Made by a program: the position numbers and the translations under genes | Shown: piece after piece, positions 2,506 through 6,387 of the stretch | Layout: the number at the start of each line of letters is the position of its first letter | How positions within the stretch are numbered: position 1 is the stretch's first letter | Notes under the pieces: generated by a model | Database searches by the model: none | Told to the model about the DNA's origin: nothing | Seen by the model: only the letters and a program-made list of their open reading frames with translations | Source of the DNA: a plasmid | Sequence record: NZ_CP064763.1 | Length of the DNA: 6,387 nucleotides | Strand: one strand, 5' to 3'

Positions 2506-3066
2506 ATGAAAGATAATAAAAATAAGAAACCATTTTATAAAAATTGGTGGTTTTGGGTAATTTTTATTGTAGTTATTGTAGTCATTGGGGAAATGGGTGG
2601 AGGTTCTTCTAAAGACTCAGACACCAAGAGTTCATCTGAAAAAACAGAAAAAGTAGCGAAAAAGTCTAGTCCGGAGAAGAAAACAACTACAAAGTCTGAA
2701 GATACAAATAATAACAACAGTGACAGTACTAATACATCGACAAATAAAAATGACAAAGTATCACCTGATGATAAAAATGCCCTAGCATCCGCAAAAACTT
2801 ATTCAGATACTATGCATATGTCAAAACAAGGAATATATGATCAATTGACATCTGATGCCGGAGACAAATTCTCACCCGAAGCAGCTCAATATGCTGTAGA
2901 TAACCTAAAAGCTAACTATAATGAGAATGCATTAAAATCAGCAAAAACTTATCAAAAAGAAATGAATATGTCTACTGAAGGAATTAGAGATCAATTAACT
3001 TCTGATGCTGGGGAAAAATTCACACCAGACGAAGCTAATTATGCAATTCAACATTTAAATGATTAA
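2506..3066 (+). CDS. Membrane-anchored protein with two Ltp-family (phage superinfection-exclusion lipoprotein-type) repeats
   Basis: 186 aa. N-terminal basic stretch plus hydrophobic helix (WWFWVIFIVVIVVIG), with no Cys, so a signal anchor rather than a lipobox. Then a Ser/Thr/Lys/Asn-rich linker. Then two tandem repeats, ALASAKTYSDTMHMSKQGIYDQLTSDAGDKFSPEAAQYAVDNL and ALKSAKTYQKEMNMSTEGIRDQLTSDAGEKFTPDEANYAIQHL. These match my memory of the Ltp repeat (A-x-x-SAK-x-Y ... S-x-x-G-(I/L)-x-DQLTS ... G-x-KF(T/S)-x-(E/D)-(A/E)-x-YA(V/I)) from Streptococcus thermophilus phage TP-J34 Ltp and LAB homologues. Confidence 0.7.
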   Translation: MKDNKNKKPFYKNWWFWVIFIVVIVVIGEMGGGSSKDSDTKSSSEKTEKVAKKSSPEKKTTTKSEDTNNNNSDSTNTSTNKNDKVSPDDKNALASAKTYSDTMHMSKQGIYDQLTSDAGDKFSPEAAQYAVDNLKANYNENALKSAKTYQKEMNMSTEGIRDQLTSDAGEKFTPDEANYAIQHLND

Positions 3067-3299: not shown

Positions 3300-3340
3300 G
3301 GTCTATAATTACCAAATCGCCCCTCAAAAACATTGAAAGA

Positions 3341-3390
3341 ATAACCCCTAATATCTATAATGTAGATATTAGGGGTTATTTATTTTTATA
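3341..3390. terminator. Bidirectional rho-independent terminator
   Basis: Perfect 17-bp arms ataacccctaatatcta (3341-3357) and tagatattaggggttat (3363-3379), loop taatg. Followed on the + strand by ttatttttata. Lies 30 bp beyond the stop of the minus-strand toxin gene and downstream of the + strand hsdS fragment. Confidence 0.55.
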
Positions 3391-3408: not shown

Positions 3409-3765
3409 TTATTCGTTATTTTTTCGATACCTTTTAGAACGATTTTGACCAGGAAATAAACGATCATGTGATCCGACTCGAATGCCAATTAAGACTAGTT
3501 CATCTTTATCAATCGTATAAACCACCAGGACATCGTTAGTTTCGCTTGGTGTTTTGTTTTTCGGGGTATCTCGTAAGTGAAATTCATTATAACCGCTCAT
3601 TCGCCGATTAAGCTCATGATCTTCAAATTCTGGTGGTAATTGTTGTTGCTCAAGCAACAGGTCAATGGCTGCTCGAACTTCATCAATAATAGATTTGTCT
3701 AAACTGGCTAACCGTTTTAGATCAGCATTAAAGGTTGCACGTGGTTTAAATCTTAGTTTTTTCAT
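3409..3765 (-). CDS. Type II toxin, RelE/ParE superfamily (YafQ-like mRNA interferase)
   Basis: 118 aa. The segment FEDHELNRRMSGYNEFHLR...VLVVYTIDKDELVLIGIRVGSHDRLF parallels E. coli YafQ (KDHPLQGSWKGYRDAHVEPDWILIYKLTDKLLRFERTGTHAALF). The start ATG overlaps the stop of the upstream antitoxin ORF (TAATG arrangement, coordinate 3765 shared). Confidence 0.75.
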   Translation of the reverse strand: MKKLRFKPRATFNADLKRLASLDKSIIDEVRAAIDLLLEQQQLPPEFEDHELNRRMSGYNEFHLRDTPKNKTPSETNDVLVVYTIDKDELVLIGIRVGSHDRLFPGQNRSKRYRKNNE

Positions 3766-4120: not shown

Positions 4121-4708
4121 ATGCAACAAGTTGTCTTACCCATCAAAGATTCAAACGTTCTTAAAGAGGTTCAAGATACGTTACTCAATAACTTTAAAGC
4201 TGGCCGACGTAACTATACAGTTTTTCAAGTTGGCAAAGCGACACTGTTGCGAGTCAGTGATGTCATGCGCTTAAAACAGATCGACATTTTTAATCCGGAC
4301 GGGTCTATTAAACAAAATGCGTTCATTCACGATCGAAAAACGGGTAAGCCTAATACCTTGTACCTTAAACCAGTTCAAACAGAGCTCTTATTGTATCGCC
4401 AATGGCTACTTGATCATCAGCTGGATTCTGAATGGCTCTTTCCTTCCATTCAACACCCCGAACGCCATATCACGGAAAAACAGTTCTACAAAATTATGAG
4501 TAAGGTTGGCGAGCTGTTAGGCATTAATTATCTAGGGACCCATACAATGCGCAAAACCGGGGCTTATCGTGTCTACACACAATCAAACTATAATATTGGC
4601 TTAGTCATGAATCTGCTCAATCATTCCAGTGAGGCGATGACTTTAGCTTATTTAGGCTTAGACCAGGCTAGTACTGAAACGATGCTGGATCAGATTGATT
4701 TTGGTTAG
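4121..4708 (+). CDS. Small tyrosine site-specific recombinase (phage-integrase catalytic domain only)
   Basis: 195 aa. Catalytic signature visible: box I Arg region (ATLLRVSDVMRLKQIDI), HTMRKTGAYRVY (H-x-x-R), and LLNHSSEAMTLAYLG (second His and nucleophilic Tyr). RBS AAGGAG at 4097-4102, 8-nt spacer. No N-terminal core-binding domain. Confidence 0.8.
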   Translation: MQQVVLPIKDSNVLKEVQDTLLNNFKAGRRNYTVFQVGKATLLRVSDVMRLKQIDIFNPDGSIKQNAFIHDRKTGKPNTLYLKPVQTELLLYRQWLLDHQLDSEWLFPSIQHPERHITEKQFYKIMSKVGELLGINYLGTHTMRKTGAYRVYTQSNYNIGLVMNLLNHSSEAMTLAYLGLDQASTETMLDQIDFG

Positions 4709-4720
4709 GAGGTTGTCCTT

Positions 4721-5080
4721 ATGGATTTAGATTTTAAAACCAACAAATATGAGCTGTTTGATGATTGGCATCAAAATAAGACTAAACAAGCCTTTACACA
4801 AAAGTTGCAACAACAAGCTCAAATTGAAAAAAAACACCTGCCACAATTATTGTCGCGTGAAGATTTAAAAATTCGTTGGCAGATGAACTCTCGTCAAAGT
4901 GTTCACCAAGTTACTAGTAAGCCTGATTTTCCACAACCCGTTTTTGCTTTTAATCATGGTAAGACGCCGCTTTACTTAGCAACTGAAATTCAAATTTTTG
5001 AAATTAATCACCCTTGGGTGATAACTCCCGGTGCTCGTCTTGCTTATAGTCATTGGATCCTTCGTAATGTGATTGATTAA
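4721..5080 (+). CDS. AlpA/excisionase-like HTH DNA-binding protein
   Basis: 119 aa. Segment LLSREDLKIRWQMNSRQSVHQVTSKPDFPQPVFAFNHGKTPLYLATEIQIFE matches the AlpA/Xis-type winged-helix pattern (L...e.a..lg.S..t.yr.....FP.P...g.r...W...Ev..w). RBS AGGAGG at 4707-4712 overlaps the recombinase stop, so the two are translationally coupled. Confidence 0.6.
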   Translation: MDLDFKTNKYELFDDWHQNKTKQAFTQKLQQQAQIEKKHLPQLLSREDLKIRWQMNSRQSVHQVTSKPDFPQPVFAFNHGKTPLYLATEIQIFEINHPWVITPGARLAYSHWILRNVID

Positions 5081-5165: not shown

Positions 5166-5200
5166 CCTTGACAAGTGTCAAGGGTGTAAGTGCGCATTGA
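5166..5200 (+). other. Putative origin of transfer (oriT), MOBQ-type: 18-bp palindrome followed by TAAGTGCG|C nick-site core
   Basis: CCTTGACAagTGTCAAGG (5166-5183, perfect 8-bp arms) is immediately followed by GTGTAAGTGCGCATTG (5184-5199). The RSF1010/pIP501/pGO1-family oriT architecture is an inverted repeat followed within a few bp by TAAGTGCG|CCCT. The first 9 nt of that nick core match here. No relaxase gene in the window. Confidence 0.45.
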
Positions 5201-5508
5201 CCTCGTTTCACTCGGTCTGCTGATAACCATAAAATCAATTTTTGCCGTTGTTGAATGGAATGTATTCTTAATTCAATTTATGCTTACACTTAACTGAGTT
5301 TGTTATGCTTTAAATGCTAAAAATTGTTGCATATCCCGCTGCTTTCAACCAATTTTTTTTAATTGCTTTATGCAGAGAATCTTCATAAACCTGGCAACAA
5401 AATTTGAATAACTAACTTTAAGAACTGCGTATCTAATTTAAGATTATTATTTTAATGTTAGGAGTAATTAAGCTGGACTAAAAGAAAGTATTAAAACCCA
5501 TTGATGAA

Positions 5509-5667
5509 ATGCTTGCTGATCCTTGGGAAGTTGATATTCAAGAATTGTTTGAAGCTTCTGTCAATGAACCTGACGAGATCAAAAAGAATTTGTATGATTC
5601 CCTGTATACTTATATTTTGCAAAAAAGACAAGAAGATATTATTAATCGTCCTGGCTTCGTTATTTAG
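5509..5667 (+). CDS. Possible small ORF or 3' remnant of a lost gene (frame open from 5482)
   Basis: Frame 5482-5667 translates KESIKPIDEMLADPWEVDIQELFEASVNEPDEIKKNLYDSLYTYILQKRQEDIINRPGFVI*. The composition is protein-like, unlike the low-complexity frames the ORF track reports here, and it ends 1 nt before a terminator. The only ATG (5509) has no RBS. AGGAG at 5460-5464 is followed by an in-frame stop (5479-5481) before the frame opens. Confidence 0.25.
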   Translation: MLADPWEVDIQELFEASVNEPDEIKKNLYDSLYTYILQKRQEDIINRPGFVI

Positions 5668-5700
5668 CCCTCTAAGAGCCTGCTGAGGGCTTTTTATTTT
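5666..5700 (+). terminator. Rho-independent terminator
   Basis: agccctc (5666-5672) pairs with gagggct (5685-5691). Followed by tttttatttt. Confidence 0.5.
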
Positions 5701-5705
5701 TGCTT

Positions 5706-6110
5706 TGGTATAAATATATATAAACAGTCTCAAAATCGCTAGAAACGAGAAATAAGGCCCTTAAAAACGAATATAGCAGTTAGATTCTTGTTGAGATTCA
5801 GAAAAACTAACTGTTTGCTGTCAATGGTAGCGGACGAGCGTAGCGTGGGAGCATAAGGAATTGACAGCTCTAAACCAGTCTTAACACTGAAATGGCAAAA
5901 GCCAAAGTTTTATAGAAACTTTGCTTTCCTGCCTAACGGCGAGTGAAAAAGCGGTCAAGCTGGTTCAGCTTGGACGGGGTACGGGGCGTCAGCGCCCGTA
6001 TTGAATGTGGCTTGCCACACCTTTTAGGCAACGAACAGAGTGAGGCGCAAGGAGCATAGCGACTGGAGTTTAATGTGAGCCGGTTTTTGGCTCACTCCTT
6101 TGTATTTTTT
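5706..6110 (+). ncRNA. Candidate structured non-coding RNA (unknown family) upstream of the replication origin
   Basis: About 400 bp with no ORF of 60 aa or more in any frame, despite visibly higher GC than the rest of the window. Possible extended -10 TGgTATAAA at 5706-5714. Five perfect stems. (1) cagttag 5777-5783 with ctaactg 5806-5812. (2) gctgtcaat 5817-5825 with attgacagc 5860-5868. (3) caaagttt 5902-5909 with aaactttg 5915-5922, nested in ggca/tgcc. (4) caagctg-gtt-cagcttg 5958-5974. (5) gtggc-ttg-gccac 6008-6020. One imperfect stem acggggcg-tcag-cgcccgt 5981-5999. Ends in a strong terminator at 6065-6110. Confidence 0.3.
6065..6110 (+). terminator. Rho-independent terminator closing the candidate ncRNA, just upstream of the ori repeats
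   Basis: ggagt-ttaat-gtgagcc-ggttttt-ggctcac-tcc: a 7-bp GC-rich inner stem plus an outer 3-5-bp extension. Followed by tttgtattttttgtttc. Confidence 0.6.
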
Positions 6111-6140
6111 GTTTCTAGATTTTAATCTCGTACAGCGGTG

Positions 6141-6184
6141 CCTCTTTTATACCTCTTTTATAAACCTCTTTTAAACCTCTTTTA
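6141..6184. repeat. AT-rich short direct repeats of the replication origin (cctctttta, 4 copies, period 11-13 bp)
   Basis: Copies at 6141, 6152, 6165 and 6176. Lactococcal-type theta replicons (pCI305/pWV02 class) carry a short repeat in an AT-rich block (3.5 copies there, 4 here) immediately upstream of 22-bp iterons. Confidence 0.6.
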
Positions 6185-6222
6185 GACCCCTATTGAGGCT
6201 TACTCTCCCAAGGCTTATAGAA

Positions 6223-6324
6223 GTTTATCAACGAGGTTTTGTCTGTTTATCAACGAGGTTTTGTCTGTTTATCAACGAGGTTTTGTCTGTTTATCAACGA
6301 GGTTTTGTCTGTTTATCAACGAGT
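6223..6324. repeat. 22-bp iterons (gtttatcaacgaggttttgtct, 4 full copies plus a partial), origin of replication for RepB
   Basis: Perfect tandem copies starting at 6223, 6245, 6267 and 6289. Degenerate partial copy from 6311. Sits upstream of repB across the circular junction. Confidence 0.8.
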
Positions 6325-6325
6325 C

Positions 6326-6387
6326 TTTTAATGGTGATCGTTGATAAACAATCGTTGATTTTATATAATAGTTATGGAGGTGTGATT
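6326..6387 (+). promoter_or_regulatory. repB promoter/operator with inverted partial iteron, and RBS
   Basis: tcgttgataaac (6328-6339) is the reverse complement of the iteron 5' half gtttatcaacga. atcgttgat is directly repeated at 6327-6335 and 6341-6349. TATAAT at 6364-6369. GGAGG at 6376-6380, 7 nt before the ATG at position 1 if the molecule is circular. Confidence 0.5.

Follow-up and report, generated by a model that had tools for sequence, protein, structure and literature searches.

A probable ssoT-type single-strand origin, catalogued in Rfam as Bacillus-plasmid RNA, beside the theta origin of a small Rep_3 plasmid

The closest described relatives of the element presented here are the single-strand origins (sso) of the pBAA1/pTA1060 type (ssoT). 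Orientation-specific conversion of single- to double-stranded DNA has been shown for sso1 of the integrative and conjugative element (ICE) ICEBs1, and is cited for pBAA1 and pTA1060 (PMC4595007). Specifically, sso1, mapped between nicK and ydcS, stabilises an sso-less rolling-circle plasmid, removes Ssb-GFP foci and cuts Ssb-bound plasmid DNA 25-30 fold, in one orientation only (PMC4595007). The pTA1060 sso corresponds to NC_001766 6349-6549 (Wright, Johnson and Grossman 2015, PMC4595007), and three stem-loops are reported as important for the activity of the pBAA1 origin (Seery and Devine 1993, as cited in PMC4595007). In this work we analysed a 6387-bp stretch of DNA (source record NZ_CP064763.1), hereafter the window, which is apparently a complete small plasmid. 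Comparison with other sequences indicates that its segment at about 5814-6032 (+) is very probably an ssoT-type origin, that is, a strand-specific DNA priming signal.

The same kind of element has been described elsewhere under another name. According to the supplement of Weinberg et al. 2010, the motif is a single hairpin with conserved loop ends and a variable interior, located on plasmids upstream of repA or mobilisation genes, with a lone chromosomal copy upstream of ydcS in B. subtilis. Those authors tentatively read it as a cis-antisense RNA controlling copy number, and the family, RF01691 or "Bacillus-plasmid RNA", is typed in Rfam as a small RNA (sRNA).

A permissive-threshold Rfam scan of the whole window returned one significant match, RF01691 at 5817-5877 (+), scoring 74.1 bits (E = 6e-16; the gathering score is 31) and spanning model positions 1-61 of 61. 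The description of the family also fits the locus, as GGTA and ATAAGGA flank a variable interior and the start of repA is about 570 nt further downstream, on the strand of the motif. An earlier note on this DNA, made from the letters alone, had singled out positions 5706-6110 as a candidate novel structured RNA. The element is not novel, since it is RF01691 and the seed of that family already contains near-identical Lactobacillus plasmid copies (e.g. NC_004944.1). The note was right to look among the plasmid motifs of Weinberg et al. but named the wrong one: RF01742 (lactis-plasmid) matched neither strand anywhere in the window at a threshold as loose as E <= 10.

RF01691 matches pTA1060 at 6354-6409. 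As this interval falls inside the mapped sso (6349-6549), the Rfam hairpin is the first stem-loop of the pTA1060 single-strand origin. A second tie is provided by a chromosomal Bacillus copy (L008, 56.9 bits), which has the ICEBs1 arrangement: an FtsK-like coupling-protein gene, a Rep_trans relaxase gene, the motif, beginning 52 nt past the relaxase gene, and then small open reading frames (ORFs) and a TcpC gene. In addition, our own model R1, made from Bacillus-type copies, finds window 5814-5871 at 46.6 bits. We conclude that the element is already known under two names, RF01691 and ssoT-type single-strand origin. Two points go beyond the databases: that the Rfam "RNA" is linked to the literature on sso, and that the placement next to the origin of theta plasmids, near an orphan oriT (origin of transfer), is strongly conserved. 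In the literature searched we found no link between RF01691 and sso, the Rfam name occurring there only in the 2010 paper, and no ssoT-type elements beside theta origins. As a separate observation on pTA1060 (L005), RF02924 ("skipping-rope RNA") matches it at 6191-6260 (-) with 50.4 bits (gathering score 36.7). This second motif is found some 90 nt upstream of the ssoT, on the other strand, and may likewise be a DNA-level element.

The extent of the whole unit, about 5814-6032, was set by the order of its parts in pTA1060 and by the alignment to L002, a Lactobacillaceae plasmid of the rolling-circle/MobV type. The parts of the unit and the features around it are the following:

5166-5197, core to about 5224 (+): oriT-like site, inverted repeat CCTTGACA-AG-TGTCAAGG, then GTGTAAGTGCGC
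5674-5694 (+): terminator-like hairpin, closing the upstream small-ORF region
5706-5813 (+): upstream flank, outside the sso, with TGGTATAAAT (5707-5716) and the hairpin CAGTTAG/CTAACTG (5777-5813)
about 5814-6032 (+): probable whole ssoT-type unit, 94.8% mean identity; in order, stem-loop I, linker, stem-loop II, CGGCGAG motif, two further hairpins, and ATTGAATGT with a short hairpin
5817-5877 (+): stem-loop I (the RF01691 match); helix P1 with arms GCTGTCAAT/ATTGACAGC at 5817-5825/5860-5868, GGTA at 5826-5829, helix P2 at 5830-5831/5851-5852, ATAAGGA at 5853-5859
5835-5847 (+): P3 mini-hairpin within stem-loop I, triloop GTA
5884-5891 (+): unpaired linker ACACTGAA, invariant or nearly so in the alignment of close relatives and kept in the divergent L002, L040, L131 and L132
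5894-5933 (+): stem-loop II; inner stem 5903/5904-5910 with 5916-5922/5923, outer pairs 5894-5902 with 5923-5933
5929-5945 (+): motif CTGCCTAACGGCGAGTG, a landmark of the family; GCCAACCGGCGAGGGA in pTA1060
5956-5972 (+): hairpin CAAGCTG-GTT-CAGCTTG; CAAGCG...CGCTTG in L025
5981-5999 (+): GC-rich hairpin ACGGGGCG-TCAG-CGCCCGT with one bulged G and a covarying closing pair
6000-6019 (+): ATTGAATGT, then a short hairpin, stem 6006-6010 with 6015-6019
6026-6110 (+): conserved tail (terminator-like hairpin 6075-6095, T run), part of the theta replicon and not of the sso
6141-6332 (+): theta origin of the pUCL287 family; 11-bp repeats, 22-bp iterons, then repA (1-936)

The order of parts is shared with pTA1060: stem-loop I, CACTNAA, stem-loop II, GCCNAACGGCGAG, a GC hairpin, and ATTGAATGT with its hairpin. 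The pTA1060 counterpart of the linker is CACTCAA, in the same place; at the position of the GC-rich hairpin pTA1060 has CCCCCCGG...GGGGGG, followed by GATTGAATGT and then a hairpin. Two divergent copies (L131 and L132) carry a different GC hairpin there (GTGGGT/ACCCAC). Stem-loop II of the window has the arms AAAGTTT/AAACTTT at 5904-5922. Further stem-loops in the manner of pBAA1 are present downstream, the counterpart of pBAA1 stem-loop III being assigned by position and not by alignment.

The unit also occurs where an sso is usually found. In L002 it lies in the intergenic space between mobV and rep, the usual sso position, and consists of a stem-loop I variant with an enlarged P3 (32.7 bits with R1) followed by an alignment to window 5878-6022. 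Further rolling-circle examples are L130, L040 and L132; in L130 and L040 the unit is again located between mobV and rep.

Support for the folded structure came from the homologues. Stem-loop I was aligned with MAFFT in 22 diverse copies (P1 of 10 bp, P2 of 2 bp, and the P3 mini-hairpin); the five inner P1 pairs, fixed by the search pattern, are uninformative for covariation. In this alignment 98.4% of cells pair and 8 of 14 pairs vary on both sides, with a covariation score of 0.438 compared with 0.129 in shuffles (0/500 reach it) and 0.03-0.06 with slid partners. At its apex P3 has either a triloop, which is GNA in 28 of 34 such cases, or GAAA. C(GNA)G and GCGAAAGC form unusually stable DNA mini-hairpins, which we take as a hint only. 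As cross-genus MAFFT alignment lost the register of stem-loop II, this stem was assayed by direct hairpin search with shuffled controls. Among 42 different family members, which have 23 distinct stem sequences, it averages 8.3 consecutive pairs compared with 4.07 +/- 1.0 in shuffles, and at least 7 bp are formed in 40/42 members as against 2% of shuffles. In close relatives stem-loop II is invariant, with 99.6% of cells paired.

The downstream stems were analysed in 46 close Lactobacillaceae sequences. Here most pairs are invariant; pairing holds in 98.6% of cells, both sides change at four pairs, and no shuffled or slid version reaches the covariation score. Specifically, the 5956-5972 hairpin pairs in 99.4% of cells, its closing pair being C-G or T.G; the closing pair of the 5981-5999 hairpin is T-A in 30 sequences, A-T in 6 and G.T in 8; and in the 6006-6019 hairpin two pairs change on both sides (GTGGC/GCCAC to GTGAC/GTCAC), with G.T wobbles on the + strand. 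Nearly all the one-sided changes are G.T wobbles on the + strand, equivalent to A.C mismatches on the other strand. Folding energies were also compared with those of shuffled sequences: the z-scores are -3.2 (DNA, +), -4.1 (DNA, -), -1.4 (RNA, +) and -3.25 (RNA, -). As the folding energy is only moderately unusual and shows no strand preference, we do not rely on it as evidence; it is the comparison with other sequences that argues for a real element.

To describe how widely the element occurs, we searched both plasmids and genomes. The region 5700-6120 is conserved in 416 PLSDB plasmids, near full length in 252 of them, with hosts that are mostly Lactiplantibacillus, Pediococcus, Latilactobacillus and Levilactobacillus. 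A scan with a degenerate stem-loop I pattern, one genome per species, found at least 120 loci; among the matches listed the hosts are Bacillus, many Lactobacillaceae genera, Staphylococcus, Enterococcus, Listeria, Granulicatella and Tetragenococcus. The GGCGAG motif follows stem-loop I at a distance of 58-73 nt in 82/113 elements (Bacillus, Staphylococcus, Listeria, Enterococcus and Lactobacillaceae among the matches listed). The remaining 31/113 have no GGCGAG module, and in some plasmids stem-loop I and its upstream flank (5700-5887) occur without the downstream modules (PLSDB matches H26-H35; L001, L003), which suggests a recurrent recombination breakpoint directly after stem-loop I. Eight loci, identical or nearly so to the Bacillus plasmid stem-loop I, sit on tiny low-coverage contigs from Streptomyces, Amycolatopsis, Kitasatospora, Sphingobium, Desulfovibrio and Paenarthrobacter assemblies, and have the appearance of vector or contaminant DNA, not of true hosts.

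The orientation of the motif is constant and is the one expected of an ssoT, which in rolling-circle plasmids is carried by the displaced or transferred strand, that of rep and mob. The motif lies on the strand of rep in 40/40 Rep_3 loci and in 6/6 rolling-circle Rep loci, and on the strand of mobV in 8/8. In 34 Rep_3 loci the rep start is found 557-570 nt (up to 790) past the start of the motif. Three Staphylococcus plasmids share this placement, although their Rep is only 37-39% identical and their iterons and downstream hairpins are unrelated in sequence. The Staphylococcus contigs L024, L055 and L115 are pSK639-type Rep_3 plasmids with five 22-23-bp iterons. Some 560-620 nt ahead of rep they carry an RF01691 stem-loop I, which scores 64.8 bits in L024, and after it a second hairpin of their own and GGCGAG. 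A review of staphylococcal plasmids does not mention an sso for the pSK639-type family.

Sequence conservation was measured across 32 plasmids sharing both the sso and rep. Mean identity is 94.8% (91.5-99.5) for the sso core and 81% (75-99) for rep; the tail reaches 93.9%, the upstream flank 87% (74-98) and the neighbouring intergenic DNA (5231-5454) 81%, while the iteron region has mostly diverged past alignment. No other non-coding part of the backbone is as well conserved as the sso, which is under purifying selection.

Upstream of the element the window contains the oriT-like site listed above, at a distance of 633 nt and on the same strand as the sso. The site fits the published Gram-positive oriT consensus NcgtNtaAgtGCGCcCTta (PMC10333310) and is of the MOBQ/pIP501/RSF1010 type. 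Its 41-nt core is found in 1170 PLSDB plasmids, mostly typed as mobilizable or conjugative; in pPECL-6 it adjoins a mobQ relaxase gene, and in 47/54 occurrences it is on the sso strand. We call the site orphan because the window has no relaxase gene.

All together, the RF01691 match, the ties to pTA1060 and ICEBs1, the shared order of parts, the covariation, the strand bias, the selection and the strand of the oriT-like site support the reading of about 5814-6032 (+) as an ssoT-type origin. Such an origin would be silent in the double-stranded plasmid and would act as a DNA element. When the + strand is exposed in single-stranded form, it would fold into stem-loop I, with the loop segments GGTA.../...ATAAGGA, then stem-loop II and another two or three hairpins, with conserved unpaired motifs in between. 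This fold would be recognised by a priming enzyme of the host. By extension from other sso types the enzyme is most probably RNA polymerase, which primes at other sso classes (PMC5703833, PMC4595007). A short RNA primer would be laid down at the sso and extended by DNA polymerases leftwards, to lower coordinates, giving the complementary strand.

As for the occasion, we prefer use after mobilisation from the oriT-like site, to which our analysis gives about an even chance. A nick on the same strand would send the + strand into the recipient with its 5' end first, and the sso would enter within the first kilobase. Both pMV158 and ICEBs1 are precedents for sso elements that matter in establishment after transfer. 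Taking the placement as a whole, it is possible, if somewhat short of an even bet, that the ssoT origin is a selected, integral module of widespread theta Rep_3/iteron plasmids of Lactobacillaceae and Staphylococcus, with oriT, sso, ori and rep on one strand.

Several points weigh against the ssoT interpretation. The functional evidence comes from relatives, none of which is a Lactobacillaceae copy, and the orientation counts derive largely from close relatives and are not independent events. RNA polymerase dependence of ssoT priming, seen as rifampicin sensitivity, enters the argument as general background. Covariation is compatible equally with a + sense RNA and with + strand DNA, and the region lies between an extended -10-like sequence that is conserved (5707-5716) and a terminator-like hairpin (6075-6095). 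The strand nicked at the oriT-like site, which we take to be the one carrying GTAAGTGCG/C, is assigned by analogy with RSF1010/pIP501-type sites. Since theta plasmids make no single-stranded circles, the occasion on which the sso would be used is one that we infer. Finally, two Enterococcus replicons (L133, L134) and L. plantarum pPLP-1 (L135) have a homologous ori and rep but no stem-loop I even with search filters off; the element is therefore not essential for theta replication, and the published descriptions of pUCL287-family origins do not include it (PMC7117683, PMC5702455).

In the alternative that survives best, the same priming mechanism serves theta replication itself. RepA and a helicase would open the adjacent AT-rich and iteron origin, leaving the + strand to its left exposed, and the sso would prime the leftward leading strand. 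The geometry inferred from polarity fits, because a primer on the + strand would be extended away from the origin. In 34 loci, among them Staphylococcus Rep_3 plasmids with unrelated iterons, the element keeps to the strand of rep and to a distance of about 557-570 nt ahead of its start; the sso accompanies ori and rep down to about 79% overall identity (matches H73-H81), and a post-transfer function would not need proximity to the origin. On the other hand, homologous replicons function without the element, the minimal origin published for the pUCL287 family consists of the repeats and repA (PMC5702455, PMC7117683), and the same unit serves rolling-circle plasmids and an ICE, where a theta origin is absent. 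The fixed closeness to the origin thus favours the theta role, whereas dispensability and use in rolling-circle plasmids and an ICE favour the transfer role. We regard the theta role as unlikely, though a serious contender. It would resemble the single-strand initiation (ssi) signals of Gram-negative oriV regions (Nomura 1991, as cited in PMC11541004) or ssiA of pAMbeta1.

Far less probable is the reading advanced in the earlier note, a structured non-coding RNA (ncRNA) transcribed from the + strand, starting at TGGTATAAAT (5707-5716) and ending at the hairpin and T run 6075-6110, with a role in copy number or maintenance. What the note had observed was borne out by our analysis. GC content is 0.49 at 5801-6000 and 0.52 at 5901-6100, compared with 0.27-0.43 in the rest of the window. 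No ORF of at least 40 aa lies inside 5734-6110, the longest being 38 aa, and the sole overlap, at the start of the interval, is the 5' tail of an 80-aa minus-strand ORF (5491-5733). All the stems listed exist, some at approximate coordinates (5958/5968, for instance, is corrected to 5956-5972), and both bracketing terminator-like hairpins, 5674-5694 and 6075-6095, were found on the + strand. A discrete, conserved, structured element adjoining the origin, and not spacer, is what the Rfam match and the covariation indicate, strongly so for stem-loops I and II. A protein-coding remnant was rejected, without a protein-database search, as ORFs inside the region do not exceed 38 aa and the substitutions preserve hairpins.

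It is the passage from these features to an RNA gene of about 400 nt that is not the best supported. In its favour, the family is typed as sRNA in Rfam and was proposed by Weinberg et al. as a cis-antisense regulator, terminator-like hairpins bracket the region, and covariation would fit an RNA equally. In L002, moreover, the element lies within the mobV 3' region ahead of a terminator-like hairpin and is probably transcribed there. The extended -10-like TGGTATAAAT does exist and is conserved among relatives; this is little informative, the entire block being about 90% identical in them, and a promoter scan of 5706-5813 found no -35/-10 pair. Against an RNA gene, the conserved unit recurs without this promoter and terminator in rolling-circle plasmids and ICEBs1-like elements, and the putative promoter region is 87% identical compared with 94.8% for the sso. 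Rolling-circle and ICE copies lack the upstream flank, although L001 and L003 have it together with stem-loop I. Taken as RNA, the + strand is no more stably folded than shuffled sequence (z = -1.4); a cis-antisense role would need a gene on the other strand, where there is none; and relatives are active in one orientation only when cloned, which an RNA gene with its own promoter would not need (PMC4595007).

The 3' hairpin taken in the note as the end of the element belongs instead to the theta-origin side. The tail 6026-6110, in which one pair covaries, is missing from the rolling-circle copies L002 and L040. Enterococcus Rep_3 plasmids, which have no stem-loop I, nevertheless keep AATGTGAG-hairpin-CTCAC just ahead of the 11-bp repeats, their stem reading GGG/CCC in place of GCC/GGC. 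Accordingly the 3' "terminator" goes with the theta origin and is shared by origins without the element. The window's tail includes TTTTAGGCAACGAAC, GAGTGAGGCGCAAGGAGCATAGCG and AATGTGAG-hairpin-CTCAC, and one relative (L089) carries a 28-nt tandem duplication inside it. In conclusion, the earlier observation is confirmed and its interpretation partly supported: a single-strand initiation site, which the note had offered as a mere alternative, is now the best reading.

Slightly less probable still is a relic or hitch-hiker without present function, left by a rolling-circle-theta cointegrate or marking a recombination hotspot: the modular behaviour (stem-loop I and flank alone in some plasmids, many copies without the GGCGAG module), the dispensability in related replicons and the known presence of the recombination site RSB in sso elements (PMC5703833) speak for it, but identity well above that of rep and the neighbouring intergenic DNA in 32 plasmids of many species, changes that are compensatory or wobble and preserve the hairpins, and an invariant orientation all speak against it.

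The backbone in which the probable ssoT origin sits is that of a pUCL287-family plasmid. The Rep_3 initiator gene repA (1-936; Pfam domains Rep3_N and Rep3_C) is preceded by 11-bp repeats at 6141-6188 and by 4.5 copies of a 22-bp iteron at 6223-6332, the same layout as in the described theta origins of this family (PMC7117683, PMC5702455), and the plasmid replicates in theta mode. Pfam searches also identified a YafQ/Phd toxin-antitoxin pair, a 195-aa tyrosine recombinase and an Ltp-type lipoprotein. The recombinase gene and a 119-aa ORF without Pfam match occupy 4121-5080 (+), and in many plasmids they are found 5' of the sso at constant positions (-1116 and -744) and in constant orientation; the conserved backbone order is int, orf119, oriT-like site, sso, ori, rep. 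Between the oriT-like site and the element, an ATG-opened frame at 5455 meets a stop at 5479, where homologous plasmids annotate a 70-aa hypothetical protein (L001 1442-1654, L003 2991-3203); this gene looks disrupted in window 5455-5667, the remaining ORFs being only 52-61 aa.

Elsewhere in the window, the minus-strand toxin gene (3409-3765) has just past its 3' end a near-perfect hairpin of about 20 bp (3335-3387, AATAACCCCTAATATCTA...TAGATATTAGGGGTTATT), probably a terminator in both directions; the hairpin yields spurious sub-threshold miRNA and rliE matches in Rfam. The 79-aa ORF at 1629-1868 is probably a fragment, its match to an S24 (LexA-like) peptidase being confined to the C-terminal part of that protein. 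The lipoprotein (2506-3066, 186 aa) is of the Ltp surface type, contains two repeats and resembles phage superinfection-exclusion proteins.

If the probable ssoT identity holds, two literatures have dealt with one object, Rfam's "Bacillus-plasmid RNA" (2010) and the work on ssoT and ICEBs1 sso1 (1993-2015). This is mainly a matter of annotation, in that RF01691 would be mistyped as sRNA and would really be a DNA element. If, beyond this, the origin is an integral module of the theta Rep_3 plasmids, then replicons without any rolling-circle phase would need an origin of single-stranded DNA (ssDNA), primed by the host, for establishment after mobilisation in trans, which would be a Gram-positive counterpart of the Frpo/leading-region strategy; alternatively, one leading strand of theta replication would start at the element. 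Replicons of the pUCL287 family are used in vectors for lactic acid bacteria, and an sso with an orphan oriT bears on the mobilisation of plasmids and their cargo between food and gut bacteria and on vector stability. The finding that the element is more conserved than the adjoining rep gene poses a concrete question, namely the role of an sso in a theta plasmid.

A comparison with known systems places the element more precisely. RF01742 resembles it only in its origin in the 2010 work of Weinberg et al. and in occurring on plasmids of lactic acid bacteria. In Gram-negative leading regions, Frpo/ssi hairpins on the transferred strand near oriT let RNA polymerase act on ssDNA (PMC11541004). The window has comparable traits, a TTGACA (5861-5866) within the 3' arm of P1, in the stem-loop I duplex, and a position 633 nt past the oriT-like core. 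It differs from Frpo in having no sequence relationship, no identified -10 partner and no leading-region gene oriented for reading from the sso. An ssDNA promoter in stem-loop I was considered and dropped as evidence, inspection finding no convincing -10 at 15-18 nt on either arm.

The ssoA origins (pT181, pLS1/pMV158, pE194) are folded single-stranded DNA signals used by host RNA polymerase in an orientation-specific manner (PMC5703833), and are thus the same kind of device as the window's element. They are marked by a conserved CS-6 in the terminal loop and a conserved RSB sequence at the foot of the stem. Identity with ssoA was rejected. TAGCGT (5841-5846) matches the CS-6 consensus TAGCGt/a (PMC10333310) but falls in the variable triloop region and is not conserved, most relatives having something else there (GCAAAGC, GCGCAGC or CCGAAGG), and RF01691 has no match in pE194 or pUB110; for these reasons the element is not an ssoA.

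The RF01691 model itself describes one hairpin with an unstructured loop, whereas in the window two covarying helices lie inside this loop and the hairpin would be the first part of an sso of about 220 nt. ICEBs1 sso1 belongs to the same family, the ydcS copy of Weinberg et al. coinciding with the position of sso1, and is the precedent for an sso in an element other than a rolling-circle plasmid that aids establishment after conjugative transfer. It lies directly downstream of its own relaxase gene, while the window has only the orphan oriT-like site.

The closest likeness is to the ssoT of pBAA1, pTA1060, pTA1015 and pTA1040. The window departs from these Bacillus origins in its theta Rep_3/iteron replicon, a longer P3, the extra CAAGCTG hairpin and a low nucleotide identity outside the landmarks. 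With them it shares the RF01691 match and the stem-loop I frame GTCAAYGGTA...TAAGGARTTGAC, followed in order by stem-loop II, GCC.AAC.GGCGAG, the GC-rich hairpin, and ATTGAATGT with its hairpin, all on the strand of rep and mob.

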